Shown: positions 2,485 through 20,709 of the stretch, piece by piece | How positions within the stretch are numbered: position 1 is the stretch's first letter | Layout of the letters: each line of letters starts with the position of its first letter | Assembly: GCA_026391215.1 (NCBI GenBank) | Contig: JAPLDX010000103.1 | Coordinates: 1-20,709, forward strand | DNA: 20,709 nt | Direction of reading: 5' to 3' | Source: Bacteroidia bacterium | Lineage (GTDB): Bacteria; Bacteroidota; Bacteroidia; Bacteroidales; VadinHA17 | Translations under genes and position numbers: made by a program | Notes under the pieces: generated by a model | Database searches by the model: none | Told to the model about the DNA's origin: nothing | What the model saw: the letters and a program-made list of their open reading frames with translations, nothing else

Positions 2485-2518
2485 ATATAATACAAATCCC
2501 ATTCCAAAAATAAAGATA

Positions 2519-4225: not shown

Positions 4226-4232
4226 AATACAG

Positions 4233-5012
4233 GTGAAAACATTGGAAGAAATACATGATGAAATCATAAACGGTCATTTATATTATCTCCGCAATGTTTC
4301 TATCGATAATGTAATTTTCGGTTATCATAACAAGGAGTTAAAAGTATTGCTTCAACGACCGCAGGGGATCCATAAATGGGTATTGTCCGGTGGTTATATA
4401 AAGAGAACTGAATCAATTGATGAAGCGGCAAAGAGAATTGCCAGGGAAAGAACAGGACTGGATGATCTGTATCTCACACAGTTCATGGCATTCGGAAATC
4501 CTGATCGAACCACTGATCCCGATATACCCACCAGGCTTATAAGCAAGCTGGTTAATATAAAAGATGCAAAGGATTTCTGGATGTTTGATTATTTTGTTTC
4601 TATCGGTTATTATACCCTTACAGAATTTGAACTGGTGAAACCCAACGGTGAGTTCAATATGGAAGAATGTCAGTGGTGGGATATTAAGAAACTACCTCCT
4701 TTACTGTTTGATCATAGGGAGATTTTAGTAGCTGCTTTTAAAGCCATGAGACTTCATCTTTACCATTACCCTATCGGTTATGAACTGCTTCCGCATAAAT
4801 TCACTTTACCGGAGATCCATACATTATATGAAACTATCCTGGGAAAGAAACTGGACAGCCGGAATTTTGCTAAAAAGCTTATCTCCACAGGGATTATTAA
4901 AAAACTTAATGAGCGAAGAAACATCGGACCTCACCGCTCCCCATTTCTCTATATATTTGATAAAGTAAAATACGATAAAGCCCTTAAAAATGGTATGGTG
5001 CTGGCTATCTGA
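4233..5012 (+). CDS. NrtR-family transcriptional regulator (NUDIX-like sensor plus winged HTH; AraR/XylR-like)
   Basis: GTG start. VSIDNVIFGYHNKELKVLL, degenerate Nudix box GGYIKRTESIDEAAKRIARERTGL, AFGNPDR, LLFDH. wHTH region LLPHKFTLPEIHTLYETILGKKLDSRNF..GPHRSPFLYIF. Confidence 0.9.
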   Translation: MKTLEEIHDEIINGHLYYLRNVSIDNVIFGYHNKELKVLLQRPQGIHKWVLSGGYIKRTESIDEAAKRIARERTGLDDLYLTQFMAFGNPDRTTDPDIPTRLISKLVNIKDAKDFWMFDYFVSIGYYTLTEFELVKPNGEFNMEECQWWDIKKLPPLLFDHREILVAAFKAMRLHLYHYPIGYELLPHKFTLPEIHTLYETILGKKLDSRNFAKKLISTGIIKKLNERRNIGPHRSPFLYIFDKVKYDKALKNGMVLAI

Positions 5013-5030
5013 CCTTTGAATATCAGAAGG

Positions 5031-5912
5031 ATGAAAAAGAACCTGTTATTAGCGATAATTTCATTATTGACGTTTACGGCAAACGGGCAGGAAATTATCA
5101 AACCAAACAGCGAAGGATATTTCCATATTAAGATCAGGGATGGGATCTATCTGATATCCAATATGTCATGGGGCGGACGGGCAGAGAAAGGAACTGCAAC
5201 ACAGAATGCTCAGTTGATCATCGGAAAGAAAAAAGCTTTGCTGATTGATACATCGCTGCCCAAAGCAGGCTTTGCCGATTATGTTAAATCAATTACACCC
5301 CTGCCGATCATGGTTGTTAATTCCCATGGTCATGTTGACCACATTGGAAATGACAATCAGTTTGACGAGATATTTATTCACCCTTCAGATGAAGAAATGC
5401 TTAAAGAATCTTTAAGCAAAGCTGGTGATATCAATTTTAAAATCAAGTATTTAAATGATGGGGATGTCATTAATCTGGGAGGTCGTCCGGTTAAGGTTTA
5501 TAATGTTCCCGGACACACAAAAGGCAGTATTGTTTTCCTGGATAAAAAAACCTCCACTCTTATTACAGGTGATGCCATTGCTCGAAGACTTTTCTATATA
5601 CCTTCTGGTGAATGGACCGACTTTTCGGATTATTTCCGTGCAATTGAAAAGATTGAAAAGCTGAAATTTGACTCAATCCTTACGAATCACGATCGATTTC
5701 TGATTTCCCGTGATCTGGGAAGTCGTTTAAAACAAACAATTATAGACAATATTGCAACTGCATCTAAAACATGGACTGCCTTTGGAACCGTTTATCTTCT
5801 TATTAAACCGGAAACGGACCAGGCAAGTAAGACATTTCTGGATATTTCCATTACTAAAGATAAGAGGGACGATATTCTAAGTGATTTAAAACAAAACGGT
5901 TATTTGAAATAG
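5031..5912 (+). CDS. Secreted metallo-beta-lactamase-fold hydrolase
   Basis: ALLIDT, SHGHVDHIG (HxHxDH), PGHTKGS, TGDA and NHD metal-ligand motifs. Start moved from TTG 5016 to ATG 5031, giving signal peptide MKKNLLLAIISLLTFTANG|Q. Confidence 0.85.
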   Translation: MKKNLLLAIISLLTFTANGQEIIKPNSEGYFHIKIRDGIYLISNMSWGGRAEKGTATQNAQLIIGKKKALLIDTSLPKAGFADYVKSITPLPIMVVNSHGHVDHIGNDNQFDEIFIHPSDEEMLKESLSKAGDINFKIKYLNDGDVINLGGRPVKVYNVPGHTKGSIVFLDKKTSTLITGDAIARRLFYIPSGEWTDFSDYFRAIEKIEKLKFDSILTNHDRFLISRDLGSRLKQTIIDNIATASKTWTAFGTVYLLIKPETDQASKTFLDISITKDKRDDILSDLKQNGYLK

Positions 5913-5936
5913 ATTTATCTTTAATACAAGACTTCA

Positions 5937-6851
5937 ATGAAAACAAGAATCTTATTATCGCTTCTTATATTACTGGAAATTGGAAATGTCATTTCAGCTC
6001 AACAGGAACTAATCCCTCTGTGGCCAGGAACAGCTCCCGGATCAGAAAGCTGGACGCAGACAGAAGTTCAGTACCTGAATGAACAGGGTCAGCAAATGGT
6101 CAGAAATGTTGTAACACCAACACTTACAGTATATAAGCCAGATCCGGCCAAATCCAACGGTACGGCTATGATTGTAGCACCCGGCGGAGGTTTTCTGTTT
6201 TTATCATGGCAGACAGAAGGTACTGAGGTAGCTGAATGGCTGGCCTCAAAAGGAGTTACTGCTTTTCTGCTGAAGTACAGGTTGTCCAATTCCGGTTCAA
6301 CCAGGGAAGAATTTCAGAAAGCCATGATGGCATTATTCAGTTCAATCAGCGCGGCAAGCAATCCGGAAAACTCAGGTAAGCCTGAAGGCGATATTAACAG
6401 GAATAAGGCTATGTCGGAAATAGCTGTACTCGGACAGGAAGACGGCAGGCAGGCTATAAGGATAGTCCGGAACCGGGCCGCAGAATGGGGAATTGATCCG
6501 CATAAAATAGGCATCATGGGTTTTTCAGCCGGAGGAATGGTGACTCTGGGTCCGTTGCTGCAACATGATGCTGAAAGCCGACCTGACTTTGCCGCTGCTA
6601 TTTATACACCATGGGCAGATAATCCTGTTCCGGCCGATGCTCCGCCTCTGTTCATTCTGGTCGCATCAGATGACATGCTGACTGAAAAGGGAAGCATTCA
6701 GATGTATTCTGCATGGAAGGCAGCCAAAAAACCAACTGAACTCCATATATATTCCAAAGGCGGTCATGGCTTTGGCATGCAGAAGAAAGGATTGCCAGTG
6801 GATAGCTGGATTGAAAGGCTCGGAGACTGGATGAAATCTCAGGGATTTTGA
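5937..6851 (+). CDS. Secreted alpha/beta-hydrolase (carbohydrate esterase-like; BD-FAE/acetyl xylan esterase type)
   Basis: Signal peptide ..ISA|QQ. PLWPGTAPGSE, PGGGF (oxyanion loop), GFSAGG (nucleophile Ser), ASDD (Asp), GGHGFG (His). Confidence 0.88.
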   Translation: MKTRILLSLLILLEIGNVISAQQELIPLWPGTAPGSESWTQTEVQYLNEQGQQMVRNVVTPTLTVYKPDPAKSNGTAMIVAPGGGFLFLSWQTEGTEVAEWLASKGVTAFLLKYRLSNSGSTREEFQKAMMALFSSISAASNPENSGKPEGDINRNKAMSEIAVLGQEDGRQAIRIVRNRAAEWGIDPHKIGIMGFSAGGMVTLGPLLQHDAESRPDFAAAIYTPWADNPVPADAPPLFILVASDDMLTEKGSIQMYSAWKAAKKPTELHIYSKGGHGFGMQKKGLPVDSWIERLGDWMKSQGF

Positions 6852-6901
6852 AGCAACAAAATACCAGTAACAAGCAACTACTAATCTTATTTATCGATAC
6901 T

Positions 6902-9900
6902 ATGATAAAAAACTTCAAACCCATTTTTTTGCAGGCAACCATATTATCCATAGTGTTTCTTGCATTTGTATTTCCAGCCCAGGCTGCCGCTCTTATTCAA
7001 AACCTTAAGGTGGAATATTCCAAAACCCCATTGGGTCTAGATGTGAAAAATCCCCGGTTCAACTGGCAGATGGTAACGAAGGTAAACGAACGCGGATATA
7101 TGCAAACTGCTTACAAGATTGTAGTAAAAGATCCGGAAGGAACAATTATGTGGGATACCCAAAAAGTGCCGGGTAGTGCTTCAATAGGCATTGCATATTC
7201 CGGTGATCCTTTAAAAGCAACCACCCGCTATACATGGACCGTGACTGTCTGGGATCAGAAAGGGAAACCTGCTTCTGATGCATCATGGTTTGAAACAGGT
7301 CTGATGGATACTGACCCCGGCTCTTCAGCCTGGGAAGGAGCAAAATGGATAGGAGGAGGTCCGAATGACCTGGTGCTTCAGGCTCACTTCCTTTCAGTTT
7401 TTAAAGTTAATTATACCATTAAGTTGGACAGCGAATCAAAAAGCACAAAAGCATCATTTATCCTGGGCGCAAATGACGGTCGTCTGCTTGATAAAAACAA
7501 GAACATCTTTAACATTGAATCAAAGCACAATGAGAGCTATATCAAACTTGAGCTTGATATTTCATCTGTTGGTGTTTCTGAAGCCGGAAATGCAAAATTC
7601 AATATTTACCGTGCCGGCTATCATCCTGATGATAATAAAGATGTCATTTTCTTCAGCGCCTCAATTCCCCGGGATATAATCAATAATGAAAACAAGTATG
7701 AACGCCATTTTTTCTTTATAGAAAGTGTTTTCGGAGCCTTAACAGTATTCGTTGATGAGAAGGATAATCACCACAGGTTGTCACCTTCCCAGGGAGGTCA
7801 GATGTTCGGAGGAGGCAGCGGTCTTAACCTTAATCCTGTCGGTAAAGGCGGTGATTATATAGCCTTCCCCCTGCTCGCTGATATAGGCTTTTCTGTCGAT
7901 TCCGGTCAGAAAGCAAGCTTTTCGGAAGTTGCAGTTACCCATTATCGTGAGCCGTCAAATAAAATGTTTGGCGAAGATCTTTTTGCAGCTGATTACAAAG
8001 GGATCTATAAGAATTATGTAAATGACGGGAAATCAGGTTTTTCTGTAAGTAACGGAGCATACACACTGGATGGCGGCAGCAGCGGATCTCTTATCACCGC
8101 TGATCCAAGCCAAAATTCAATGCCTATGCTGAGGAGCGAATTTGCTCCATCCGGAAAAGAGATCAAAGCTGCCAGGCTTTATATCACCGCCAGGGGTATT
8201 TATGAAATGTACCTGAATGGTAAAAGGGTAGGAGAAGATTATTTTAATCCCGGACTTACCCAGTACAATATCACCCACATGTACCAGACCTATGATGTCA
8301 CTTCGATGATCATCCCTGGAGGTAAAAATGCAATAGGGGCATGGCTGGGTGAAGGATGGTGGAGCGGTGCCATCTCATTTACCGGCTCCAACTGGAACTT
8401 CTTCGGCGACCGTCAGTCCCTGATGGCAAAACTTGTAATTACCTATGGTGATGGTTCAGAGACTGTAATAACAACTAATGACCGGGATTGGAAATTCTAT
8501 AATAATGGTCCCATACTCTATGGGAGCTTGTTCCAGGGAGAAATGTACGATGCTACCAGAGAAGCCTCTGTTAAAGGCTGGAATACTGCAGGTTATGATG
8601 ACAGCAAATGGACAAAGGCAGTCGAAATACCATTGAGCGGCACTACATTTACCGGCACATCAGCTGACTTTACGGGATCAAAAAGCAATTTCAATTTTGA
8701 TAAAATGTCGCTGATCGGACAGATCGGTGAAAATGCAGGTATTGTAAAAGAATTGACAGCAGTGAAGGTTGAAGAGGTTCGTCCTGGAGTATTTGTTTAT
8801 GATATGGGACAGAATATGGTCGGTGTACCCCGGGTAACAATTCCAAACGCTGAGCCGGGTAAAAAAATTACTTTCCGTTATGCTGAAGTGCTATACCCGG
8901 ATCTTCCTGAATCCGGAAAAAATGTCGGGATGATCATGATCGAAAATCTCCGTGCTGCCCTGGTACAGGATATCTATATTACAAAGGGCGGGAACGATAT
9001 ATTTCAACCCCGGTTTACTTTTCATGGTTATCGTTATCTTGAGATAACCGGAATTGACAAACCGTTGCCTCTTGAATCAGTCAGGGGAATGGTAATCAGT
9101 TCCGTTCATGAGCTTACTTCAGATTACGAAACATCTGACCCGAAAGTAAACAGGCTCTGGCAAAATATTGTATGGTCAACACTGGGTAATTTTTTATCTA
9201 TCCCCACTGATTGTCCTCAGCGCAATGAACGCATGGGGTGGTCGGGAGATATATCCGTGTTCTCGCGTACATCTACCTATGTGACAAATGCTGATAAGTT
9301 CCTGACCCGCCACATGATAGCAATGCGTAACCTTCAGATGCCTTCAGGTAAATTCACAGATACAGCTCCTGTCGTTGGCGCTTTTGGCGGTCTTCTATGG
9401 GGAAGTGCTGGAATGACAATTCCCTGGGAGGCATATCTCCAGTATGGTGATACTGATTTGCTGGAAGAACATTATAATGCCATGACTGCTTATATGGACT
9501 TTCTGGCAACAACTATTAATAAAAATACAGGACTCAGTTCGGAAAGCCAGCTGGGCGACTGGCTCGGTCCTCAGACTAACCAGGTTGGAACACAGCTGAT
9601 CGTGACAGCCTACCATATCTTCGACCTGGAGATAATGGTAAGAACAGCAGAGATACTTAACAAAAGCGCTGATGCAGAGAAATACCGCAAAATGTATAAT
9701 GAGCGCAAAGAATTCTTCAACAGGACATTTGTAAATTCTGAAAAGAAAACTTTACAGGGACCAAACGGGAAGCTGTCTGATACGCAGACATCTTATGCTG
9801 TTGGTCTTGCATTGGGTGCCTTCAATGATGAGAACATTCCCTTTATGGTAAAAAATCTTGCTGAAACTGTTAAGCGTGAGAATAAGGATGATGGTGGTGT

Positions 9901-10513
9901 TATGCGTCCTGTATATTCCCTCATGACAGGATTTATAGGTACGGCATGGATCAGCAAAGCATTATCCGACAATGGATTCAGCGAACTGGCTTACAGGATA
10001 CTCCAAAACAATAAGTACCCCTCATGGCTTTACGCAATAGATCAGGGTGCCACAACTATCTGGGAGCGGTTGAACGGGTATACTATTGAAAACGGATTCG
10101 GAGGCAATAACAGCATGAATTCCTTTAACCACTATTCCTTTGGAGCCGTCGGTCAGTGGATGATGGCTTATTCACTGGGGATCCAGCGTGATGAACCCGG
10201 TTTCAGAAAATTCAACCTTCAGCCTGAACCGGACCCGACCGGGATGATGACCCGGGCAAAAGGATATTACGATTCAATGTATGGAAGGATCAGCAGCGGA
10301 TGGAATGTCGAAAATGGTATACTTACATATACTGCTATAGTCCCTCCAAATACAATTGCCACACTTTACATTCCGGCTGCATCAGCCGGTGCAGTGAAAG
10401 AGAATGACAAGGCGGTGAAGAAATCGAAGGGTGTAACATTTATTAAATATGAATCGGGGAAAGCTGTCTTCGAGTTGAAATCAGGCAGTTATAAGTTTAC
10501 ATCTTCATTATGA
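6902..10513 (+). CDS. GH78 alpha-L-rhamnosidase, long form with an inserted domain
   Basis: PLGLDVKNPRFNW N-terminal domain, PMLRSEF, ARLYITARGIYE, YDMGQNMVG, PRFTFHGYRY, IPTDCPQRNERMGWSGD (catalytic acid region), GATTIWERLN (base), NSFNHYSFGAV. Start moved from TTG 6848 to ATG 6902 (signal peptide ...FVFPAQA). Confidence 0.93.
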   Translation: MIKNFKPIFLQATILSIVFLAFVFPAQAAALIQNLKVEYSKTPLGLDVKNPRFNWQMVTKVNERGYMQTAYKIVVKDPEGTIMWDTQKVPGSASIGIAYSGDPLKATTRYTWTVTVWDQKGKPASDASWFETGLMDTDPGSSAWEGAKWIGGGPNDLVLQAHFLSVFKVNYTIKLDSESKSTKASFILGANDGRLLDKNKNIFNIESKHNESYIKLELDISSVGVSEAGNAKFNIYRAGYHPDDNKDVIFFSASIPRDIINNENKYERHFFFIESVFGALTVFVDEKDNHHRLSPSQGGQMFGGGSGLNLNPVGKGGDYIAFPLLADIGFSVDSGQKASFSEVAVTHYREPSNKMFGEDLFAADYKGIYKNYVNDGKSGFSVSNGAYTLDGGSSGSLITADPSQNSMPMLRSEFAPSGKEIKAARLYITARGIYEMYLNGKRVGEDYFNPGLTQYNITHMYQTYDVTSMIIPGGKNAIGAWLGEGWWSGAISFTGSNWNFFGDRQSLMAKLVITYGDGSETVITTNDRDWKFYNNGPILYGSLFQGEMYDATREASVKGWNTAGYDDSKWTKAVEIPLSGTTFTGTSADFTGSKSNFNFDKMSLIGQIGENAGIVKELTAVKVEEVRPGVFVYDMGQNMVGVPRVTIPNAEPGKKITFRYAEVLYPDLPESGKNVGMIMIENLRAALVQDIYITKGGNDIFQPRFTFHGYRYLEITGIDKPLPLESVRGMVISSVHELTSDYETSDPKVNRLWQNIVWSTLGNFLSIPTDCPQRNERMGWSGDISVFSRTSTYVTNADKFLTRHMIAMRNLQMPSGKFTDTAPVVGAFGGLLWGSAGMTIPWEAYLQYGDTDLLEEHYNAMTAYMDFLATTINKNTGLSSESQLGDWLGPQTNQVGTQLIVTAYHIFDLEIMVRTAEILNKSADAEKYRKMYNERKEFFNRTFVNSEKKTLQGPNGKLSDTQTSYAVGLALGAFNDENIPFMVKNLAETVKRENKDDGGVMRPVYSLMTGFIGTAWISKALSDNGFSELAYRILQNNKYPSWLYAIDQGATTIWERLNGYTIENGFGGNNSMNSFNHYSFGAVGQWMMAYSLGIQRDEPGFRKFNLQPEPDPTGMMTRAKGYYDSMYGRISSGWNVENGILTYTAIVPPNTIATLYIPAASAGAVKENDKAVKKSKGVTFIKYESGKAVFELKSGSYKFTSSL

Positions 10514-10556
10514 GGTCTGATAAAAATGATTTTTGATAAATATGTGGCAGGTATAA

Positions 10557-13262
10557 ATGTTTAACAGGAATGCCAATAGAGTTTTTGTTACAGGATTAAT
10601 TATTCTTTCATCCTCTCAACTGTTATTTCCCCAGGTCACCGATCAAAGAAGCTACCTGTCAATTGACCAGGTAATTGAAAAGTTAGAACAAAAGTATCCG
10701 GTACAATTCTTTTACAAATCCGAATGGTTTGAAAACAGAACCTTCCATGCTTCTATTCTCGAATTATCCTTCGATGAAACCTTGGACCGAATTAAAACAA
10801 CATCAGAATTATCTGTAATTACCATTGACTCTCTGCTTTATGTATTTATTCCTGTAAAACCAATAATAATACCTCAGCCACAAAAGGGAAAGTCAGATGT
10901 AGTTATAGTTGGTAATCCTGACGAATACGGGAAATATACCAAAGCAACATTAAACGGAAAGATAATTAATGGGAATGATGAAAAACCTTTGCCCGGGGCA
11001 TCCATCTTCATTGACAAATTAAAGTTGGGTTCACATGCTGATGATAAAGGCGAATACCATCTTCAGGTCCCTGTGGGTGAGCATACCATAAGACTATCTT
11101 TTATGGGATATGATGATAATATGCAGAAAATCAAACTGGTAAGCAATGGCTCAATGAATTTTAAATTGTATGAAAAATCGGTTAACCTCCCTGAAGTGGT
11201 AATTTATTCCGAACATGCTAAATCAAATGTTACTGCAACTAATATGAGCATTGTCAAACTGGATATAAAGGCAATAAGGGAACTTCCTGTTTCACTGGGA
11301 GGAACTGATATTATTAAGAGTATTACACTTATGCCCGGTGTTCAGACAGTCGGAGAATTCGGCACCGGCTTTAATGTCCGTGGAGGAAGTGCGGACCAGA
11401 ATCTGATTCTGATTGAAGATGTACCTTTATTCAATTCATCACACCTGTTTGGCCTTATTTCGGTAGTCAATTCAGATGGCATCACTGATGTCACATTGTT
11501 AAAAGCTGGAATTTCAGCAAAGTATGGAGAACGTGCATCATCAGTGATGGATATACGAATGGGTGCCGGTAATCCCGACAAAACGAAGGTGAAGGGTGGA
11601 ATTGGCATTATTAACAGCACAATATATGTTGAGACTCCCCTGATTGAAAATAAAATTGGCCTGTTGCTGGGCGCCAGAAGTTCTTATTCTAACTGGCTTC
11701 TTCACTCTATCCCGGACATCGATTTAATGAACAGTTCTGCACATTTCTATGACGTAAATGCTCTAATATCCTTTAATTTAAATGATAAAAACAAAATCAA
11801 TGTTTTTGCCTATATAAGCAATGATAAATTTCGATTCGCTGAAAATACTGATTATCAGTATAGCAACAAGCTTGGTTCTGTAAGGTGGAGACATTCTTTT
11901 AACGACAATCTCTATTTTAACCTGAGTGCTGGTTTAAGCAATTATAATTATCAGGTATCAGAATCCGATACTTCGCGATCATGGGAATCCTATAAAATAA
12001 ATTCCGCATTGCTTTATCAAAATATTAAGTGGAACTTTTCCTGGATTCCAAACGAAAATCATGCTCTTGATTTTGGCATAAATGCTGTTTCTTATAATAT
12101 CCAACCGGGTAAGCTAAACGGGCTCGTTGACAAATCAGTAATAAAAACCATTCAAGTGCAGCCTGAAAAGGGGATAGAGAATGCAGTCTATTTAACAGAT
12201 AACGTTACTATATCTCCAAAACTCGCCCTGGATTTAGGTGTACGTTATACCTTGTATTCATACCTGGGCCCCAATAAGGTCTATATTTATCGACCTGATT
12301 TGTCCCGGGTTCCCGAAAGCATAATCGATTCATTAACTTATAGTAATAATGATCCGATATGCTGGTATTCAGGATTGGAACCCAGACTTTCCATACGGTT
12401 CACAATTTCAGACAACAGCTCGATAAAACTTAGTTATAACAGGATCCATCAGTTTGTCAACCTGATCTCAAACACAGCGGTAATGTCACCTACTGATGTA
12501 TGGAAGCTTAGTTCTCCGAATCTTAAACCGCTCATATGCGACCATGTTGCGATTGGATACTTTCGTAATTTCAGGAACAATACAATAGAAACTTCGATAG
12601 AAATATATTACAAGAACTTACTAAATACTATCGATTATAAAAATGGCGCAAGAATTCTTCTTAATCCCTATCTTGAAGCAGATCTGACAAATGTCAATGG
12701 GAAGAATTACGGTATTGAATTATATATAAAGAAAAACTCCGGACGACTCACAGGCTGGGCCAGTTATACGTTTTCGAGATCGTGGCAGAAAACAAATGCA
12801 AGTTTCAACGAGGATAAAATAAACTTTAATCAGCCTTTCCCATCGAACTTTGACAGACCAAACAACCTGATCCTGAATGCAAATTATCATATTTCAAAAC
12901 GCTGGCGCTTCAACAGCACCTTCTCTTACAGTACAGGACGTCCTGTTACATTGCCGGAATTAAAATTCAGTTACCAGGGTTACCAGCTGATTTATTATTC
13001 AGATCGTAATAAGTACAGGCTGCCCGACTACCATAGGCTCGATGTTTCAATAACTCTAGATGAATCGCTGAAGATCATGAAGAAATGGAAAGGCAGCTGG
13101 ACATTTTCGATCATTAACCTGTATGGCAGGAGAAATGCGTATTCTGCCTTTTATAAAAAGGAACCCCATATGGTGTCAAATGAATACAGACAATATGATA
13201 CCTATATACTATATATAATAGGTTGTCCGCTTCCGACGCTGACATACAATTTTATATTTTAA
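10557..13262 (+). CDS. TonB-dependent receptor (non-SusC) with N-terminal STN-like and CarboxypepD_reg-like domains
   Basis: Signal peptide. GKIINGNDEKPLPGASI..SFMGY (CarboxypepD_reg). LPEVVI (TonB-box region). Plug motif MPGVQTVGEFGTGFNVRGGSADQNLILIEDVPLFNSSHLFG. YRLPDYHRLDVS and a C-terminal beta-signal ending in Phe (TLTYNFIF). Confidence 0.93.
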   Translation: MFNRNANRVFVTGLIILSSSQLLFPQVTDQRSYLSIDQVIEKLEQKYPVQFFYKSEWFENRTFHASILELSFDETLDRIKTTSELSVITIDSLLYVFIPVKPIIIPQPQKGKSDVVIVGNPDEYGKYTKATLNGKIINGNDEKPLPGASIFIDKLKLGSHADDKGEYHLQVPVGEHTIRLSFMGYDDNMQKIKLVSNGSMNFKLYEKSVNLPEVVIYSEHAKSNVTATNMSIVKLDIKAIRELPVSLGGTDIIKSITLMPGVQTVGEFGTGFNVRGGSADQNLILIEDVPLFNSSHLFGLISVVNSDGITDVTLLKAGISAKYGERASSVMDIRMGAGNPDKTKVKGGIGIINSTIYVETPLIENKIGLLLGARSSYSNWLLHSIPDIDLMNSSAHFYDVNALISFNLNDKNKINVFAYISNDKFRFAENTDYQYSNKLGSVRWRHSFNDNLYFNLSAGLSNYNYQVSESDTSRSWESYKINSALLYQNIKWNFSWIPNENHALDFGINAVSYNIQPGKLNGLVDKSVIKTIQVQPEKGIENAVYLTDNVTISPKLALDLGVRYTLYSYLGPNKVYIYRPDLSRVPESIIDSLTYSNNDPICWYSGLEPRLSIRFTISDNSSIKLSYNRIHQFVNLISNTAVMSPTDVWKLSSPNLKPLICDHVAIGYFRNFRNNTIETSIEIYYKNLLNTIDYKNGARILLNPYLEADLTNVNGKNYGIELYIKKNSGRLTGWASYTFSRSWQKTNASFNEDKINFNQPFPSNFDRPNNLILNANYHISKRWRFNSTFSYSTGRPVTLPELKFSYQGYQLIYYSDRNKYRLPDYHRLDVSITLDESLKIMKKWKGSWTFSIINLYGRRNAYSAFYKKEPHMVSNEYRQYDTYILYIIGCPLPTLTYNFIF

Positions 13263-13263
13263 T

Positions 13264-14421
13264 ATGAAACCAACCTATACAATATTTCTTATACTGATCG
13301 GGTTGGTGACTTCCTGCTACAAAGTCTATGATCCACAGATTGACACAACGGATAAAGTACTGGTAATAGATGGCCTTATAACAAATCAAAAAGATGCTTA
13401 TCATATAGCCCTTTCATATGCCAGACCATTCAATTCAAGCGAAAAAGTTATGCCAGTAAGTGATGCCAATGTTTATGTAACCGACAACTTTGGTAATTCC
13501 TACATTTTCAATAAGATGGGGGAAGGAGATTACGTATCTGATCCATCGCAATTTACAGGTATTCCGGGACGTACCTACCGGCTTCACATTATCACCAGGG
13601 ATGGTGCGGAATATGAGTCGGATCCTCAGCGATTATTTCCCGAAGTATCCCCTGACAGCATCTATGCAGAGTTTGATAATAAAGAAATTCTGCAAAGAGT
13701 TTCAGGATTGAAAGTGAACACACATGGGGCAAATATTCTCGCTGATATACAGAATAAGTCGGATTCACTCCCGCGGTACAGGCTTACGTCAAATCTGGTA
13801 ATGCAATATTATTATACAATCTACCATCAGCTGGATTTGTACACTTTTCTCACTTTTAATTTTTATTGCTGGCAAACAGTCAATGCCTGTACCAATATTA
13901 ACCTGACCGGAGGTGAGTATTCTTTAAATTCAGCCTCTGTTAAAAAACATCCGGTCTGTTTTCTGGATGATAATTTTGACGTTTATGCGTTGTATTACGG
14001 GCTCAAGATCAATATGGAGGATACTACTGGCAGTGAAATCAAAACATCTTCTTATCGATTTTATATGATTCACCACCGGATCCTGTATTTAAACCAGTAC
14101 ACCCTGAATAATGAGTCATATTTATATTATAAGAACCTTGATGAGCAGATGCAATCGGAAGGGAAACTTTTTGATCCAATCGCTGCTCAGCTCAATGGAA
14201 ACATTAAATGCATTTCGGATACGGAGATAAGAGCAATTGGCTTTTTCGAAGCTTCATCTGTCAGCAATTCTGCTTATATCGTTGATTTCAGAAATTTAGA
14301 AAATTCTCAGCCTGCATTAATAAAAACGCCATATATCTTACCTCCTGAACCTGTTGGCTGCCGGATCAATAGATCAGGAAGTATACATTCCAAGATTCCT
14401 TCATTTTGGATTTTTATATAA
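13264..14421 (+). CDS. DUF4249-like outer-membrane lipoprotein, partner of the TBDT
   Basis: Lipobox LVTS-C. VLVIDGLIT, GRTYRLHIITRDGAEYES, CW motif, LFDPIAAQLNGNIKC...AIGFFEASSV, C-terminal PSFW. Starts 1 bp after the TBDT stop. Confidence 0.85.
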   Translation: MKPTYTIFLILIGLVTSCYKVYDPQIDTTDKVLVIDGLITNQKDAYHIALSYARPFNSSEKVMPVSDANVYVTDNFGNSYIFNKMGEGDYVSDPSQFTGIPGRTYRLHIITRDGAEYESDPQRLFPEVSPDSIYAEFDNKEILQRVSGLKVNTHGANILADIQNKSDSLPRYRLTSNLVMQYYYTIYHQLDLYTFLTFNFYCWQTVNACTNINLTGGEYSLNSASVKKHPVCFLDDNFDVYALYYGLKINMEDTTGSEIKTSSYRFYMIHHRILYLNQYTLNNESYLYYKNLDEQMQSEGKLFDPIAAQLNGNIKCISDTEIRAIGFFEASSVSNSAYIVDFRNLENSQPALIKTPYILPPEPVGCRINRSGSIHSKIPSFWIFI

Positions 14422-14427
14422 TAGCTT

Positions 14428-16194
14428 ATGAAAGCTTTATTATATATACTGCTTATATTGCTCAATTGTTTTTGTCTATGTAATGCACAGTACAAGAATT
14501 TATCGGCAATACCCGAAAGTATTTACCTCCATACTGACAGGCGCGTATACATTGCCGGCGACAATTTATTCTATACCCTGTATTTAAAAGGAAATCCAGG
14601 TCAGATGAGTAAATATGCATACCTGGTATTACGTGACCGTCATAATTCGCTGATAACCCAGGTCAGAGTTGACATAAGAAATCAAATGGCTTTCGGTAGT
14701 ATTTACCTCTCTGATACCCTTCACTCGGATATTTACCAGATAGTATCTTATACAAATTGTATGAGAAATGAAGGTGAGTATTCCTTTTTTATAAAAGAAG
14801 TAGTAATTGCAAATCGGTTTGACAAAAAACTAGAGCTGTTTGACAGTACATCTTTTAACGGACTTTCAACTATGTCCCCCGGCCAGTATTCGGTCGACGA
14901 AATTAAAAATGAAAACCTTATTGTTCATTTGGACAAGCAGTTCTTCAATACTAAAGAAAAAGTGACGTTTTCCATTGAAACCAAAGACATTCCGGGAGAC
15001 ACCATTTCCAGGCTTTCGGTTTCTATAAGCGAGATCGTTCCTGGTATTCCGGATGAACCTTCAATATCATCCTGTTTTAATAACGTTGCTAAACCATCAA
15101 TTACTATAGAACCAAGGCAGAATCGTTGCATTTATCATTCCGAAATAGAAGGACCTGTAATAGAAGGGAGAGTTTTAACTATGCCGCAATCCGGCAATCA
15201 GTCTGTTACAGGTACCATGGATATTGAAAACGATATTAATAACTACACAATACTTGTTTCCACCCCGGACAGTATCGCAAACATGCAGTATACCACTGCC
15301 GATTCTTTGGGTTCATTTGCCATCTTACTTAATCACTACTATGAAGGGAAAGAATTAATTATCAGGCTTAAAGAGAGTGCGAAAGCGAGTATCGAACTTG
15401 ACAATAAATTTGAGCTGTTTCAACCGTTTACTCCATCAGAGTTATTCATTATACCTGGCATCAGATCTTATATGGTCCGAAGCAGGAATATTTCTGAAGT
15501 TCAAAGATATTACAATGAAAAGTCTGAAATAGATACTGGCAAAATAGTTGATCATGTATTGGCAATTCCCAGGATTTATTATAAATCCTTTTACAAAGTC
15601 TTTCCTGCTGATTATCTTCCTCTTACTGATTTTGTTGAGATCGCGAGAGAACTATTACCCAGCTTGAAAGTCAGAAAAAGCACAGACAATTATATATTGA
15701 GTTGTACGGATACCCGGAATAGAGGACTTCTTAACAAAGAACCAGCAATTTTTCTGGATGGAGTACCTATTGATGACGTAAATCAGATTATTAATCTTGG
15801 TACAAACCAGATTATGCGCATAGATGTATTGCCCGTAAACAGATATTATGGGGAGATGTTACTACCAGGTATTCTTGCTATTTTCAGCAAAAATCTGGAA
15901 ATCAATAATATCCAATTCAGAACGCCAACTATCAGGTTTCAGGCATTCTCAAGTCTAAACAATACAAAACCAGAACATTATATTCCAGATTATAGCAACA
16001 AACACATCCCTGATGTAAGACAGTTATTATTATGGGATCCGGAAATAATACTGCATAATACAGAAAAGCGACAGATTGAATTTTACACTTCTGATCTTCA
16101 GGGAGATTACAGGATAAGTATTCAGGGTATTACTTCAAACGGTCTTCCTCTAAATTGGTCCGCGATTATTACAGTTCAATCCAAATCAAACTGA
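14428..16194 (+). CDS. Secreted conserved hypothetical protein with macroglobulin (MG2)-like N-terminus and a TonB-plug-like segment
   Basis: ESIYLHTDRRVYIAGDNLFY resembles the MG2 start xxTDRxxYxPGE. PAIFLDGVPIDD..IMRIDVL is plug-like. C-terminal PDVRQLLLWDPEI..FYTSDLQGDYRISIQGIT resembles an alpha-2-macroglobulin domain. Confidence 0.75.
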   Translation: MKALLYILLILLNCFCLCNAQYKNLSAIPESIYLHTDRRVYIAGDNLFYTLYLKGNPGQMSKYAYLVLRDRHNSLITQVRVDIRNQMAFGSIYLSDTLHSDIYQIVSYTNCMRNEGEYSFFIKEVVIANRFDKKLELFDSTSFNGLSTMSPGQYSVDEIKNENLIVHLDKQFFNTKEKVTFSIETKDIPGDTISRLSVSISEIVPGIPDEPSISSCFNNVAKPSITIEPRQNRCIYHSEIEGPVIEGRVLTMPQSGNQSVTGTMDIENDINNYTILVSTPDSIANMQYTTADSLGSFAILLNHYYEGKELIIRLKESAKASIELDNKFELFQPFTPSELFIIPGIRSYMVRSRNISEVQRYYNEKSEIDTGKIVDHVLAIPRIYYKSFYKVFPADYLPLTDFVEIARELLPSLKVRKSTDNYILSCTDTRNRGLLNKEPAIFLDGVPIDDVNQIINLGTNQIMRIDVLPVNRYYGEMLLPGILAIFSKNLEINNIQFRTPTIRFQAFSSLNNTKPEHYIPDYSNKHIPDVRQLLLWDPEIILHNTEKRQIEFYTSDLQGDYRISIQGITSNGLPLNWSAIITVQSKSN

Positions 16195-16198
16195 AGTT

Positions 16199-16933
16199 AT
16201 GAAAATTAAAATAGTACTTGCTTTTGCAGTTCTGCAGATTCTTACATTTCAACTTCTGTCCGGCCAAAGAAACGCCACCAGTGAAAACTGTGGCTTACCT
16301 GACTCTGAACCATATCTGACTGGCGAACTTTTTACGCCAGCTCTCCCGGTTGATCCGACAACCTATTTTAATTCAGAATGGCTTTCAGGAGATATTTATC
16401 TTTCAAATGGAGAGGTAGTGAGAAGTAAACTCATAAAATACAACGGATTACTGGATGAACTTTTCTGGCAGGAACCAAAATCGAAGAATATTATTAAGCT
16501 CGATAAAGAAGCAATACTGCAATTTCATTTTCTGAATTTTAAAGGTGATACATCGGTTTATTTCAGAAAAATCAAAGTCAAACAGAATATTATTGCTGAT
16601 TCGAGTGAAGTTTTCGGGGAGGTGATATATAATGGACGCTTGTCGCTTTTTGTATTGCATACTTTTATTATCGAACGGAGGGAACTTGTTTATATGAATG
16701 GGATTCCTTATCAGAAAGATATTTATGCAGAAGAACCGATTTATTTTTTCAGTTGGACTAATAACAAAACCTTCATTACCAAGCTTCTGAACCGAAATAG
16801 TTTGTATCCAATTTCTCCCGCTAATAAGGATAAAATTAATATATTCCTGAAGGCTAATAAACCCTTGAAATTCATTAATAATTCTTACCTCATAAGGTTG
16901 ACTCAATTTCTAAGTACTATAGTGGATCAGTAA
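16199..16933 (+). CDS. Secreted conserved hypothetical protein
   Basis: Signal peptide ..LLSG|Q. YFNSEWLSGDIYLSNGEV..LIKYNGLLDEL is a motif I associate with Bacteroidota hypotheticals. Starts 4 bp after the upstream gene. Confidence 0.75.
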   Translation: MKIKIVLAFAVLQILTFQLLSGQRNATSENCGLPDSEPYLTGELFTPALPVDPTTYFNSEWLSGDIYLSNGEVVRSKLIKYNGLLDELFWQEPKSKNIIKLDKEAILQFHFLNFKGDTSVYFRKIKVKQNIIADSSEVFGEVIYNGRLSLFVLHTFIIERRELVYMNGIPYQKDIYAEEPIYFFSWTNNKTFITKLLNRNSLYPISPANKDKINIFLKANKPLKFINNSYLIRLTQFLSTIVDQ

Positions 16934-16972
16934 GTAACAATTAAAATCTTAAGATGAAACTATAGTTAAGAT

Positions 16973-17464
16973 ATGAAGAAGCTATCAACATTAATCGTTC
17001 TTCTTTCTTTCACAACGACCGGGTTTTCACAGACCCGGCTCCCTTCAGTTGTCCTCAAATCAACAGACGGTGATGAGGTCAGGCTTTCTGACTATGCAGC
17101 TTTGAAAAAACCTCTGATAATATCATTCTGGGCAACCTACTGCGGTCCTTGTCTTGAAGAATTTGAAGCGGTCACAGATCTTTATGACGAATGGAAAAAA
17201 GAGGTCGATTTCGAGTTTATTGCAGTAAGCATCGATGATTCAAGGTCGGCAGCCAGGGTGAAGAGCATGGCTTCAGGCAAGAACTGGCCATTTATTGTAT
17301 TGATTGACGAAAATCAGGATGTTAAACGAGCCATGAATGTAATTGACATTCCATTCTGCTTCATCTTTGACAAAAACGGAAAGTACGTGTACAAGCATTC
17401 CGGCTATCTGCCGGGAGATGAGTTTGTCATGCTTAAGGAGCTAAAGAAGATCACTGATGAATAG
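16973..17464 (+). CDS. TlpA/ResA-family thioredoxin-like disulfide reductase, periplasmic
   Basis: SPI signal ..GFS|Q. IISFWATYCGPC (CxxC at 17141-17152), IAVSIDD, cis-Pro loop DIPF, HSGY.PGDE. Confidence 0.92.
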   Translation: MKKLSTLIVLLSFTTTGFSQTRLPSVVLKSTDGDEVRLSDYAALKKPLIISFWATYCGPCLEEFEAVTDLYDEWKKEVDFEFIAVSIDDSRSAARVKSMASGKNWPFIVLIDENQDVKRAMNVIDIPFCFIFDKNGKYVYKHSGYLPGDEFVMLKELKKITDE

Positions 17465-19031
17465 AATTACCGGAATAGCGATATTGTCGGTGCTGATCTT
17501 TTCATCAGCTCTGGCTCAGAATTCCGGACAAATATCAGGAAGCCTCGAAAGTAATACCCACTACTATCTCAGGGATGATCTGCTGCTTATAACGAAACCT
17601 GAAAATCCGGTAGCTTCCAATAACTACTTACTCCTGCAGTACAACAACGGACCTTTTTCCGGGGCATTGCAGTATGAAGCCTATATGCCGCCTTTGTCAG
17701 GATACCCCTACCAGCTTGAAGGAAACCGTCTGACCTACCTGAACTTCAGGTATACCAAAGAGGTAATCGATGTTACTGCCGGCAGCTTTTATGAACAGTT
17801 CGGCAATGGACTCATCCTGAGGGCTTATGAAAGCCGTGAACTGGGAATAAACAATGCTGTCAATGGCGTGAGGGTCATCATCAAACCTGTAAAATTCTTA
17901 AGGATAACAGGTATTTTAGGGAGAACGAGAAGCTATCTGGATATCTCTTCAAGTTACCTGAGAGGCTTTAATACAGAGCTTGATATTGGAGAAGTAATGA
18001 AAACAAAACTTGGGCTAAAACTGGGGGGAGGATTTATAAACAGATATCAGGAATATACTGGTCCGGTTTTCAATTTTCCTGCAAGTGTAAATGCCTACAG
18101 TCTCAGATTATCTGCAAATTATTCAAATCTCAATATTGAGACAGAATATGCCAATAAGGGTATTGACCCTTCAATCGCTAACCTTAACAGTATGGCTAAT
18201 GGGGGGGCTTTTCTGGTCAACGGCAACTATACAGCAGCTGGATTCGGAATATATGCTTCAGCCAGGTTTCTAAAAAGCATGGATTTCAGGAGTGAGAGGG
18301 AATCGTATGGCAACTACATGATGATCAATTATTTGCCAGCGAATACCTGGCAGCACACTACTCTTCTTGGAGGCATTTATCCTTACAGCACCCAGGCGAG
18401 AGGCGAAGCATCAATACAAACCGACATCAATTATTCACTTCAGAAAGGGACTTTCCCCGGAGGCAGCTATGGTACAAAGCTCAGATTCGGTTTCTCACAT
18501 GTCAGGAACCTTAAAGACACTAATTCCCCGATACTGATTTCGTTTGGCAATCAGGTTTATTATCAGGATCTGACATTCGAGATCACAAGAAAATGGAGCC
18601 CGTCAGTGAAAACAATCACAGCACTGACTGCATTAAAATATGACAAAGCTGTTATCGAATATCCCGGGGCTGATTTTGTCAAAGCGATTATTCTGAATGC
18701 TGAATCACAGATCCGTATTTCAACGACTTTTTCCCTTAGGACAGAACTGCAGCATCTGTGGACAAAACAAGATGACGGCAACTGGCTGGCCGGCCTTGCA
18801 GAGGTTGGGCTGGCACCTCACCTGAGCTTCTTTGTCTCAGATATGTGGAACTATCAGAATCAAGGTGCTGAACCTCACTATTACAATTCAGGTATAAGCT
18901 TTTCAACGGATTATATGAGGATATCGACGGGTTACGGAAGGCAGAGGGAAGGGCTGATATGCGCCGGAGGAGTTTGCCAGAGAGTGCCTGCCTACAGGGG
19001 ATTTAATCTAAAGCTTACTGTAAATTTCTAA
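17457..19031 (+). CDS. DUF6029-like outer-membrane beta-barrel protein
   Basis: Signal peptide ..ALA|Q. SNNYL, TAGSFYEQFGNGLILRAYE.RELGINN, amphipathic strands, GYGRQREGLICAGGVCQRVPA, C-terminal Phe. Overlaps the tlpA-like gene by 8 nt. Confidence 0.82.
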   Translation: MNRITGIAILSVLIFSSALAQNSGQISGSLESNTHYYLRDDLLLITKPENPVASNNYLLLQYNNGPFSGALQYEAYMPPLSGYPYQLEGNRLTYLNFRYTKEVIDVTAGSFYEQFGNGLILRAYESRELGINNAVNGVRVIIKPVKFLRITGILGRTRSYLDISSSYLRGFNTELDIGEVMKTKLGLKLGGGFINRYQEYTGPVFNFPASVNAYSLRLSANYSNLNIETEYANKGIDPSIANLNSMANGGAFLVNGNYTAAGFGIYASARFLKSMDFRSERESYGNYMMINYLPANTWQHTTLLGGIYPYSTQARGEASIQTDINYSLQKGTFPGGSYGTKLRFGFSHVRNLKDTNSPILISFGNQVYYQDLTFEITRKWSPSVKTITALTALKYDKAVIEYPGADFVKAIILNAESQIRISTTFSLRTELQHLWTKQDDGNWLAGLAEVGLAPHLSFFVSDMWNYQNQGAEPHYYNSGISFSTDYMRISTGYGRQREGLICAGGVCQRVPAYRGFNLKLTVNF

Positions 19032-19042
19032 GGAAGAATAAC

Positions 19043-20095
19043 TTAACTGTCTTCATAAACAAACTCCAGTTTTTCTCCCACCCTGGCTTTAATACAGTTC
19101 AGCACCTCGTCAGTCCTGGACCCGCTGCTGTAGGTGACAAAAGCAATAACAATCATCTTTTTTATTTCGCTGCAGCTGAAATTTGTGAATTTAATTTCCT
19201 TGGCGTAGATGCTGCCAATATCGACGGATGCAGATGGTATTGCATCGCCAAAAATATCTGTACCCGATTTTATCATTACATTCCTGTGAACAAAATTGCC
19301 CATTATAGAACCTGCCTTGTAATATGGGGAGGAAGGATCAGTATCGTAATAATTTGCCTGGTTGGCAATAAGACTGTCATTAAGAAGGTAAACCGACAAT
19401 TCCAGATTCTCAGCGAAATCGTAGCCGAACATAATGTTTATATTGGCTGTTACCAGTGCAATATTGCCTGTAACTTCCATTGATATTCCGATACGTGAGG
19501 GTGTATGGAGAGGTTTAATTTCAGAAGGCTCTCCCTTCCATTCAATATTTCTGTCAGCATGCACTGTCGGGATACCGGTAAAGCCAAATGACTGGAAAAG
19601 TGTACTGTTAAGACTATATGTCATTTCATCACTGAGATGATAGGCAACATGTACAACTCTATTGTCGGTCTTCTGAAGATTACTGATCTGATAGATCGCC
19701 CGCGGACACCATCCACACCAGGTACCGGTATACTGTTCAAGCAATACGTTTTTGTTGAACTTAAGATTCTTATCTTCAACCACCTCTATCTCTTCCTCAT
19801 TGCTTTTTATGTTATTGTACATTGCATATACAGTTGATACTGAGGGAGTAGGGGATGCTATTTTGTCACCGCTAACTGTTTCTCCGTCATAGTAGATAGT
19901 TATATATTCCATAACACTTCTGCCATCCTGATTTACTACAGATACTTTTGCAAAGTCGGTATTGTCTCCGACTATCCTGCTCTTCGAAAGTGTTAATTCC
20001 AGGGATTTTATATTTGGACCGTCATCCTCGTCGCCGTCACAGCCGGCAATAAAGATCGAAAGGGCAAATAATACAACTATCTGAAGCTTATACAT
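19043..20095 (-). CDS. Omp28-related outer-membrane lipoprotein (thioredoxin-like CxxC domain) with an N-terminal Ig-like domain
   Basis: Lipobox IAG-C followed by DGDEDD. NVLLEQYTGTWCGWCP (CxxC at 19706-19717), VAYH, TGIPT (cis-Pro loop), QANYY, FVHRNVM, IAFV. Confidence 0.88.
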   Translation of the reverse strand: MYKLQIVVLFALSIFIAGCDGDEDDGPNIKSLELTLSKSRIVGDNTDFAKVSVVNQDGRSVMEYITIYYDGETVSGDKIASPTPSVSTVYAMYNNIKSNEEEIEVVEDKNLKFNKNVLLEQYTGTWCGWCPRAIYQISNLQKTDNRVVHVAYHLSDEMTYSLNSTLFQSFGFTGIPTVHADRNIEWKGEPSEIKPLHTPSRIGISMEVTGNIALVTANINIMFGYDFAENLELSVYLLNDSLIANQANYYDTDPSSPYYKAGSIMGNFVHRNVMIKSGTDIFGDAIPSASVDIGSIYAKEIKFTNFSCSEIKKMIVIAFVTYSSGSRTDEVLNCIKARVGEKLEFVYEDS

Positions 20096-20268
20096 TTGAT
20101 CTTTAATTCAATGTAAAATTAAACAATATATCTGAAACATTACACTTCCTTTTTTGCTTCTACCTGAGATCAACCTCACTGGTCACGTACTTATTCCTGA
20201 TCATTTTAACAGGTATTGACTCTATACACCTTGCACCAGTCAACCTCTTCTTCATCCCAACTTTCTCT

Positions 20269-20709
20269 CTGAAGAGATCATTTCTTTCAGGTTTCCTTAT
20301 GTTAACTGTATTTTATTTCCTGCAGGCACAAACTATTTTACTGCAGGAAGACTTCAGTACAGCCTCAGGTACAACTCCGCCTGCCGGATGGACAGTTCAG
20401 ACCAGTATTGGTGACCCATTAGCTGATTTGTGGCATCTCGATAATCCGGGACGACGCTCGCCGGGAGATCCTGTTGCCGGACCTTTCGCCTGTTTTGACA
20501 GTGATAAACTAAGCGACAATGGATTAGCTGAAGAAGTATGTCTGACCTCCCCGGTCTTTGATGCTACTACTACTGCAAACATTACATTGGAATTTGACCA
20601 GTATTTTATTGAAGGTTATGGTGGTTCCTGTACGGTTGAAATTTTCAATGGCACTTCGTGGATCAGCATCTACACTAATAGCTCGACTACAGGCAATCCG
20701 CACCATTCC
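20269..20709 (+). CDS. Secreted surface protein with a cleaved-adhesin/MAM-like N-terminal domain; 3'-truncated by the window edge
   Basis: Not in the ORF track. Frame 1 is open from 20107 to the end: (M)KRSFLSGFLMLTVFYFLQA|QTILLQEDFSTASGTTPPAGWTV..DLWHLDNPG..FACFDSD..LTSPVFD..ITLEFDQYF..NGTSW. EDF..PAGW and LTSP.FD are typical of this beta-sandwich type. Start uncertain (CTG 20269 or ATG 20299). Confidence 0.75.
   Translation, partial: MKRSFLSGFLMLTVFYFLQAQTILLQEDFSTASGTTPPAGWTVQTSIGDPLADLWHLDNPGRRSPGDPVAGPFACFDSDKLSDNGLAEEVCLTSPVFDATTTANITLEFDQYFIEGYGGSCTVEIFNGTSWISIYTNSSTTGNPHHS

Follow-up and report, generated by a model that had tools for sequence, protein, structure and literature searches.

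Thiol-disulfide chemistry is not known to extend beyond the periplasm: we know of no route by which proteins on the outside of the outer membrane receive equivalents, whether reducing or oxidising, and of no electron source for the surface thioredoxin-fold proteins of Bacteroidota, such as HBP35. Within DsbD, Cys103 and Cys109 of the alpha domain lie on adjacent beta-strands and shuttle between thioredoxin folds. Here we describe a locus on a Bacteroidia contig (JAPLDX010000103.1, positions 1 to 20,709; this whole stretch of 20,709 nucleotides is referred to as the window) in which genes for a TlpA-like, probably periplasmic oxidoreductase, a DUF6029 outer-membrane beta-barrel and an Omp28-like lipoprotein lie side by side. 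There is strong support for a conserved module composed of TlpA, surface-addressed thioredoxin folds and a barrel whose cysteine pair is invariant, and the passage of electrons through the barrel cysteines is plausible. The locus is best read as an envelope-spanning thiol-redox module with a relay via the barrel cysteine pair, a reading that we favour while holding it at slightly below an even chance.

The surface component can be compared with HBP35 of Porphyromonas gingivalis, one form of which is modified at the cell surface; the recombinant protein shows thioredoxin activity in vitro that depends on C48 and C51, an hbp35 plasmid complements an Escherichia coli dsbA mutant, and the protein binds haemin and is required for growth at low haemin (PMC2907840). 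The available part of that paper names no electron donor for HBP35. Surface thioredoxins, exported as lipoproteins or through type IX secretion (T9SS), are also reported in Muribaculaceae (PMC13404670, a 2026 preprint), the available main text of which gives no TlpA or Omp28 occurrence and mentions no barrel. In F. psychrophilum, tlpB reportedly has a gliding and biofilm phenotype. In the literature, DUF6029 was found in a single work (PMC9603273, with its preprint), and neither a trans-outer-membrane thiol relay nor a link between TlpA and a barrel was found. No prior published description was found, and the functional association is new.

The three genes and their dithiol motifs

The first-pass annotation of the window had singled out three adjacent genes, each with a dithiol motif, and all three open reading frames (ORFs) were recovered at its coordinates. 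The features of the locus are as follows:

16973..17464, + strand: TlpA-like, probably periplasmic thiol-disulfide oxidoreductase (163 aa; Redoxin and AhpC-TSA match)
17141..17152, + strand: TlpA active-site motif CGPC (C57, C60), within WATYCGPC (translation)
17457..19031, + strand: DUF6029 outer-membrane beta-barrel (524 aa; PF19494)
17457..17464, + strand: overlap of 8 nt, ATGAATAG, where the barrel start codon precedes the TlpA stop codon (sequence)
18960..18977, + strand: barrel cysteine pair CAGGVC (C502-C507; translation and model)
19043..20095, - strand: Omp28-like, HBP35-like lipoprotein (350 aa; PF11551)
19706..19717, - strand: active-site motif CGWC (C127, C130) within TGTWCGWCP (translation, TWCGWCP)
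20018..20050, - strand: lipobox IAGC and acidic tract DGDEDDG, candidate surface-export signal (translation)
20299..20709, + strand: partial ORF ending at the contig edge, possible HBP35-like T9SS N-terminal domain (BLASTP)

The 8-nt overlap indicates translational coupling of the TlpA and barrel genes, and ORF, overlap and cysteine count all agree with the earlier description of a coupled 524-aa barrel whose sole two cysteines form CAGGVC. The Omp28-like gene is convergent with the barrel gene, their stop codons being 11 nt apart; its minus-strand orientation is a detail that the first-pass annotation does not give. A search for RNA evidence of co-transcription listed no RNA run, and the runs found were DNA from sediment and wetland metagenomes. 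A promoter and terminator scan of positions 16000-20709 found sites no more frequently than in shuffled sequence and is uninformative, and in the same scan no terminator was seen between the module genes.

The barrel matches PF19494 from end to end (residues 1-524, profile 1-538; E 2.9e-169, 564.6 bits against a cut-off of 27), and DUF6029 is its only Pfam match. Its signal peptide (...SSALA, before QNSG) precedes a mature chain that ends in F, and its two cysteines both lie in CAGGVC at residues 502-507. A phmmer search of 1.84 billion representatives returned 936 relatives at E up to 1e-3, and 127 near-full-length sequences (the window's barrel and 126 of the 150 best listed, pairwise at most 50% identical) were aligned. 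At a mean column identity of 24%, only eight columns are invariant (G109, G116, G118, G137, E449, C502, G505 and C507), with G504, R508 and P511 conserved to at least 90%; the cysteine pair is kept in 127/127 representatives.

Loci were then compared in three sets: (A) the 30 best matches including the window's own locus, with 1.5 kb on either side; (B) 39 hand-picked lower-scoring matches (Pfam E 1e-5 to 1e-142), with 5 kb on either side; and (C) the 80 best named genome contigs, also with 5 kb. Because the species collections behind them overlap and related genomes are included, the sets are not independent samples. The pattern C-x-[GSNA]-G-x-C is found in 148 of the 149 barrels from these loci (A, 30/30; B, 38/39; C, 80/80), including barrels whose match to the Pfam model reaches only E 1e-5 to 1e-13, and in the lone miss (L068) a stretch at the C-terminus is masked (X). 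The cysteine motif, the loss of which would have spoken against the relay first suggested, is thus preserved in the barrels compared. As judged by these alignments, conservation of the pair lies far beyond chance, and we propose the C-x-[GSNA]-G-x-C hairpin, which is absent from the Pfam description, as a putative family hallmark.

In the AlphaFold2 model of the barrel (predicted local distance difference test, pLDDT, 95.9; predicted TM-score 0.90), the whole mature protein (503 residues) consists of strands and loops, with 24 long strands assigned by DSSP. The cysteines lie in a hairpin of 5+5 residues (499-503, 506-510) between strand 23 (487-496) and the last strand (513-523). Both termini of an outer-membrane barrel are periplasmic, and this rule, taken together with the way in which long loops alternate with short turns in the model, would place the cysteine hairpin in the last extracellular loop. 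Among solved structures, the usher pores FimD and PapC are nearest in fold (Foldseek E 5.3e-11; VIA Z 18.6 and 17.5, the former with a root-mean-square deviation of 4.6 over 367 aligned residues), at a sequence identity of 10-13%. Lower-ranked matches are MtrB (VIA Z 14.6), LptD and TonB-dependent transporters, and Wzi (2ynk) gives a partial match over residues 25-419 (VIA Z 12.6). A complex prediction of barrel residues 22-524 with TlpA 20-163 and Omp28-like 108-350, run without controls, gave no answer, with interface scores (ipSAE) of 0.00 and 0.01 where the mark is 0.32, and we take it to weigh neither for nor against contact.

The TlpA-like protein matches Redoxin (PF08534; cut-off 26.6 bits) and AhpC-TSA in Pfam (E 1.8e-19), and its hydrophobic N-terminus, read by eye, contains a putative signal peptide MKKLSTLIVLLSFTTTGFS (ending GFS, with Q as the next residue). 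The W-x-x-C-x-x-C site required of such a protein is represented by WATYCGPC. Among 56 DUF6029-linked TlpAs, C57, P59, C60 and P127 are invariant, P127 being the putative cis-proline; CKPC is one form of the TlpA active site at these loci. Scores against the NCBIfam models of ResA (NF002854; 74.5 bits, cut-off 170) and TlpA (NF047696; 43.4 bits, cut-off 230) fall below the cut-offs, so that the protein is TlpA-like and an orthologue of neither. A profile hidden Markov model (HMM) built from the loci gave 7 hits in the window's own genome, where the linked TlpA scores 221 bits and the next paralogue 57 bits; by these scores the linked protein is a dedicated, distinct orthogroup there. The same genome (3.39 Mb, 98.9% complete) has one DUF6029, one Omp28 and one DsbD gene, the last (DsbD_TM, C100:36267-36893) lying away from the module. 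DsbA, VKOR and DsbB were looked for in it and not found, so that one would not expect a catalysed structural disulfide there.

The lipoprotein matches PF11551 over residues 165-341 (E 2.6e-19, 70.1 bits against a cut-off of 34.9). With 46 bits against a cut-off of 150 for the NCBIfam "Omp28 family outer membrane lipoprotein" (NF033782), it is a divergent relative, and the N-terminal region of the NCBIfam "Omp28-related selenoprotein" model weakly matches its CxxC region. Its predicted structure (pLDDT 93.4) comprises an immunoglobulin-like domain (approximately 28-108), a thioredoxin fold (approximately 115-200) and the Omp28 beta-sandwich (165-341), with helix 130-143 beginning at the CxxC motif and P176 preceding the next strand. 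C127 and C130 are invariant across 55 Omp28-like homologues, as are E120, T123, W126, H153, P176, R182, Q246, N248, H270 and G283; CGNC occurs beside CGWC as an active site of Omp28-like proteins. Foldseek gives HBP35 (5y1a) as the best match (E 6.7e-15, TM-score 0.53 to 0.59), and the family profile finds among PDB sequences HBP35 (E 1.2e-18) and the Porphyromonas gingivalis Omp28 domain 2r2c (E 2.8e-8). The lipoprotein WCGwCp aligns with WCGYCP of HBP35, the sole cysteine pair of the aligned stretch; we read this pair as probably C48/C51, in an alignment that carries no residue numbers to fix it. The view that Omp28 lacks a clear function thus needs qualifying, given the match of the thioredoxin part to HBP35 and the existence of an Omp28-related selenoprotein model. 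As to selenoproteins at the loci themselves, the in-frame TGA codons beside the barrels of G363 and G075 proved to be ordinary stops of Omp28-like genes.

The lipobox IAGC, the tract DGDEDDG, the motif TWCGWCP and the invariant P176 were all present in the lipoprotein, as first noted. No Por_Secre_tail match in Pfam points to a T9SS C-terminal sorting domain in this protein, which has a lipobox instead. The signal reported for lipoprotein export, K-(D/E)2 or Q-A-(D/E)2, is charge-dependent (PMC5080379). The DGDEDDG tract is acidic, yet is no exact match to either consensus. Among small Omp28-like neighbours of the barrels, 77 of 118 have a lipobox by regular expression, and in 64 of these 77 the next seven residues are net negative.

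Gene neighbourhoods, fusions and surface partners

A TlpA with a CxxC site lies at most 400 bp upstream of the barrel in 24/30 loci of set A, 33/39 of set B (25 on the same strand, 8 divergent) and 70/80 of set C, or 127/149 overall, and the median same-strand gap between the two genes ranges from 0 to 26.5 bp across the sets. Set B has six loci without a TlpA by this measure; in four of them one lies a little farther off or overlaps the barrel ORF. An Omp28-like CxxC gene is found within 1.5 kb of the barrel in 25/30 (A), 22/39 (B) and 77/80 (C) loci. The module occurs in at least 596 matched stretches of species-representative genome contigs, and carriers of DUF6029 include Mucilaginibacter, Hymenobacter, Chitinophaga and a marine flavobacterium. 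Among 401 genomes of the phylum, DUF6029 is present in 104 and Omp28 in 79, both in 69 and neither in 287; the Omp28-only genomes score under the Pfam cut-off in 9 of 10 cases, and 31 of the 35 DUF6029-only genomes belong to one family, which uses CPHC redoxins instead. The largest family in this sample (87 genomes) has neither. The co-occurrence of TlpA, DUF6029 and Omp28 given in the first-pass annotation is verified by gene neighbourhoods and, for DUF6029 and Omp28, by this genome pattern, and the fusions, T9SS partners and HBP35 homology extend it.

The tie between TlpA and the barrel is covalent in some relatives. TlpA-DUF6029 fusions were found in P0148 (695 aa; P0232 belongs to the same cluster), P0233 (697 aa) and P0234 (702 aa), each with one signal peptide, a Redoxin domain (WCGPC), a linker of approximately 10 residues and a DUF6029 barrel that has no second signal peptide and carries CVGGVC near its C-terminus. 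The fusions are 46-71% identical to one another and come from different sources, so that they are not assembly artefacts, and the attachment of TlpA to the barrel N-terminus puts TlpA at the periplasmic mouth of the barrel. A search for longer barrel fusions, of 918-2620 aa, found none, which is weak evidence.

The third partner is variable. In set B loci without an Omp28-like gene, the downstream gene mostly encodes a CPHC thioredoxin fold (a distant clade), either a lipoprotein of 173-178 aa or, in seven cases, a Redoxin protein of 269-373 aa with a T9SS C-terminal domain. In addition, a Pfam scan covered 33 large CxxC neighbours, of 430 aa or more, picked from sets B and C; 28 have Por_Secre_tail, 18 of these 28 with an Omp28 domain as well, which identifies the large neighbours as HBP35-like T9SS cargo. 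Their genes usually lie just upstream of TlpA. As judged by these domains, the third partner is replaced repeatedly by other thioredoxin folds, always ones with predicted surface targeting, and this targeting would follow two independent routes, by acidic-tract lipoprotein or by T9SS C-terminal domain.

The window may hold such a large partner too. The partial ORF at 20299-20709 resembles, by BLASTP (31-33% identity, E 5e-5 to 2e-3), the N-termini of three large neighbours, L104:1590-4169, L104:7575-10877 and L044:7933-10008. The first and third of these have an Omp28 domain and Por_Secre_tail in Pfam; the second has CAPC and is assigned on the basis of its match (2e-13) to an HMM of Omp28 built from the loci. 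By this resemblance the window's own locus may encode an HBP35-like partner as well, the ORF being an uncertain member of the module.

Other genes recur near the barrels. A small T9SS neighbour of approximately 230-280 aa is found at L084:1595-2365 (-), L018:214-915 (-), L043:3671-4420 (+), L007:1-697 (-) and elsewhere, with a conserved N-terminal motif such as H..x.[FL]C[WFM]x2-3C[YFW]. Its BLAST cluster comprises 86 ORFs from 74 loci, perhaps joined via the shared C-terminal domain, and 42 of the 59 cluster members of 180-340 aa contain Cx3C or Cx4C. Pfam gives Por_Secre_tail alone for this protein, and the protein atlas places it in "hypothetical" clusters below 0.9; it could be a surface substrate or an extra redox partner. 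A DsbD (DsbD_N and DsbD_TM; L003:1-1468, -) adjoins one barrel and an MsrB (SelR; L043:6697-7239, -) lies near another, while Rhodanese-domain proteins are encoded downstream of the barrel at L007:3265-4338 (+, 357 aa) and L008:3247-4440 (+, 397 aa). The Ignavibacteria contig L146 has two TlpA-barrel pairs (4449-6659 and 10460-11656) approximately 6 kb apart, with TlpA copies equal in length (175 aa) and HMM score, which may reflect a recent duplication or an assembly repeat. Truncated ORFs with weak Wzi matches under the cut-off (E 6e-5 to 7e-4) lie on the strand opposite to the Omp28-like gene and downstream of it, at L018:4147-4674, L021:4051-4656 and L024:4058-4639.

In the window itself, four tightly packed genes (10557-16933, +) precede the module on the same strand, encoding a TonB-dependent receptor (FecR_C-like N-terminus, CarboxypepD_reg), a DUF4249 protein and ORFs of 588 and 244 aa. 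These two ORFs, the sole upstream queries, have no family match and no relatives in the other 148 loci, and the upstream genes are for this reason not counted in the module. The region 255-10513 serves glycan utilisation and is unrelated to the module; it encodes a GlcNAc 2-epimerase-like protein, a GH43 protein (F5/8 type C and fn3), an NrtR/Nudix regulator, a metallo-beta-lactamase-fold protein, an esterase and a 1221-aa alpha-L-rhamnosidase.

A proposed relay and its alternatives

If the barrel cysteines do relay electrons, cytoplasmic reducing equivalents would reach TlpA through the genome's single DsbD, and TlpA would dock in or beneath the wide barrel. The cross-strand cysteine pair of the barrel would then take the part that the alpha domain plays in DsbD, a relay point that is itself no thioredoxin set between thioredoxin folds, and would pass electrons to the surface thioredoxins. 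These would serve to reduce, isomerise or protect thiol proteins or ligands that are at the surface or extracellular; the flow is possibly reversed where the surface partner carries CPHC. Usher pores pass folded domains of approximately 15 kDa, cross-strand disulfides are typically strained and redox-active, and the alternation of thioredoxin fold, beta-hairpin dithiol and thioredoxin fold mirrors DsbD gamma, DsbD alpha and DsbC/CcmG. Tentatively, and with rather more doubt than even chances would allow, we suggest that DUF6029 is the first thiol-based bacterial outer-membrane electron conduit, running from NADPH via TrxB, Trx and DsbD to TlpA, the barrel pair and the surface HBP35/Omp28 thioredoxins. 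The trans-outer-membrane relay of the first-pass annotation is partly supported by these results, namely in the module, its conserved dithiols, the tie of TlpA to the barrel and the surface partner; the passage of electrons itself stays at plausible.

Several observations weigh against the relay. A structural staple would equally give an invariant cysteine pair. The hairpin, if extracellular as the model suggests, lies a full membrane thickness from the periplasm, the side of TlpA, and contact between any two components is hypothetical. The CPHC partners resemble oxidising DsbA, which makes the direction of flow ambiguous. An adjacent TlpA is missing from 6/30 loci of set A and 10/80 of set C (16/110) in which the barrel motif is kept. 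In four of these loci a tetratricopeptide repeat (TPR) protein directly upstream of the barrel takes the position of TlpA (L009:3165-3782, L013:3132-3761, L022:866-1495 and L026:2555-3214; approximately 205-219 aa, one clade), and these loci retain both the cysteine motif and the Omp28-like gene. Finally, since the 87-genome family does without DUF6029 and Omp28, the function is not general to the phylum.

The same data can be explained by a barrel that only houses its partners, as MtrB sheathes MtrA and MtrC: TlpA would insert from below and meet the surface thioredoxin directly in the lumen, and the cysteine pair would serve as a staple, structural or gating, and not as a relay. The usher-sized barrel of 24 strands without a plug domain, the place of MtrB among the fold matches (Z 14.6) and the fusions that put TlpA at the periplasmic mouth all suit such a portal, and the synteny and phyletic data fit it as well as they fit the relay. 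We nevertheless consider it unlikely: direct thioredoxin-to-thioredoxin exchange is usually slow, the known cascades, as in work on DsbD, alternating folds; conservation of the pair and of the nearby G, R and P across very distant members exceeds what is usual for a staple; and no disulfide-forming enzyme was recognised in the window's own genome. Somewhat more doubtful, in our view, is a barrel that forms a diffusion or uptake channel for a thiol, disulfide or redox-sensitive solute (for example cystine, disulfide-bonded peptides, haem or a metal), with the surface thioredoxin capturing or reducing the solute outside and TlpA handling it in the periplasm, a division of labour to which we extend the same doubt. 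Haemin binding by HBP35 and its requirement at low haemin (PMC2907840) would agree with uptake, as would the Rhodanese genes after the barrel in L007 and L008, the TonB-dependent receptors near some loci, the window included, and the invariant H153, H270, R182, Q246 and N248 of the Omp28-like proteins, which beside the CxxC could bind a ligand. Those receptor neighbours are, however, not conserved, and the queried upstream ORFs have no relatives in 148 loci; the barrel bears no transport-family signature in Pfam, DUF6029 being its only match, and a plain channel requires neither an invariant cysteine pair nor a covalently fused TlpA.

An improbable role, to be placed a little below solute uptake, is in biogenesis, the barrel exporting or anchoring surface thioredoxins (compare LptD-LptE, Slam and PorP/SprF) while TlpA keeps the cysteines of the barrel and of these clients reduced in transit. 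The barrel does adjoin lipoproteins with an export-signal-like tract and T9SS cargo, the TPR proteins of the four loci weakly resemble the TPR repeats of Slam (E approximately 1e-4 to 1e-5, under the cut-off), and LptD too has disulfides near its C-terminus and a lipoprotein plug. One barrel would, however, have to serve two unrelated export routes, a transit chaperone would not need permanent fusion to the barrel, and the T9SS cargo carries mostly Por_Secre_tail, the "type A" class, for which no PorP/SprF-like partner is known to be needed. That there is no joint function at all, adjacency reflecting the abundance of TlpA paralogues and the cysteine pair being a fold-stabilising disulfide, seems to us very improbable: TlpA-like genes are indeed numerous (7 hits in the window's own genome), but the linked TlpA is a separate orthogroup adjacent to the barrel in 127/149 loci, fusions exist, and Omp28 and DUF6029 co-occur genome by genome. 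DUF6029 has also been tied to polysaccharide export through HHpred similarity to beta-barrel-only homologues of Wzi (PMC9603273, in the part available). The neighbourhoods do not support this role: the scanned neighbours contain no match to the polysaccharide-export (OPX) family, and hardly a locus is without redox genes.

If the relay is real, it would explain how surface thioredoxins such as HBP35 stay active, give functions to DUF6029 and Omp28 and, as a system of a new kind in the outer membrane, stand beside the porin-cytochromes as a second type of trans-outer-membrane electron conduit. Even if the relay step is wrong, the functional association, the TlpA-barrel fusion and the replacement of surface partners remain.

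Comparison with known systems

In fold, the barrel stands closest to the FimD and PapC ushers, which are also 24-stranded; ushers have a plug and N- and C-terminal periplasmic domains, whereas the window's barrel has none of these and no Usher match in Pfam. The likeness to Wzi (PF14052) is one of partial fold only (Z 12.6), and PF14052 gives no Pfam match of the barrel at E up to 0.01. LptD-LptE likewise combines a large barrel with a partner lipoprotein and has functional disulfides near the C-terminal strands; LptD transports lipopolysaccharide, whereas the window's barrel has neither a lipopolysaccharide context nor a match to that family, and its cysteine pair lies within one hairpin.

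The MtrCAB complex (6r2q) offers a functional parallel, as a large barrel that lets periplasmic and surface redox proteins exchange electrons, with MtrB also a fold match. Its chemistry is haem-based, in contrast to the CGPC and CGWC partners and the two-cysteine barrel described here, and CxxCH motifs are absent from all three module proteins. HBP35 (5y1a) shares the thioredoxin and Omp28-type architecture of the window's lipoprotein, which differs from it in being a lipoprotein, in having no T9SS domain and in carrying an extra N-terminal immunoglobulin-like domain.

The chain from DsbD/CcdA to TlpA/ResA/CcmG resembles the proposed relay in that dithiols follow one another through successive compartments, with a TlpA-type CxPC reductant. 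Should the relay through the barrel hold, the likeness to DsbD would extend to the use of a non-thioredoxin cysteine pair on adjacent strands as a shuttle. The barrel has no homology to DsbD_TM or CcdA in Pfam, and the two systems differ in place and build: DsbD and CcdA work in the inner membrane with a helical DsbD_TM domain, whereas the module described here would work at the outer membrane, with a DUF6029 barrel and acceptors at the cell surface.

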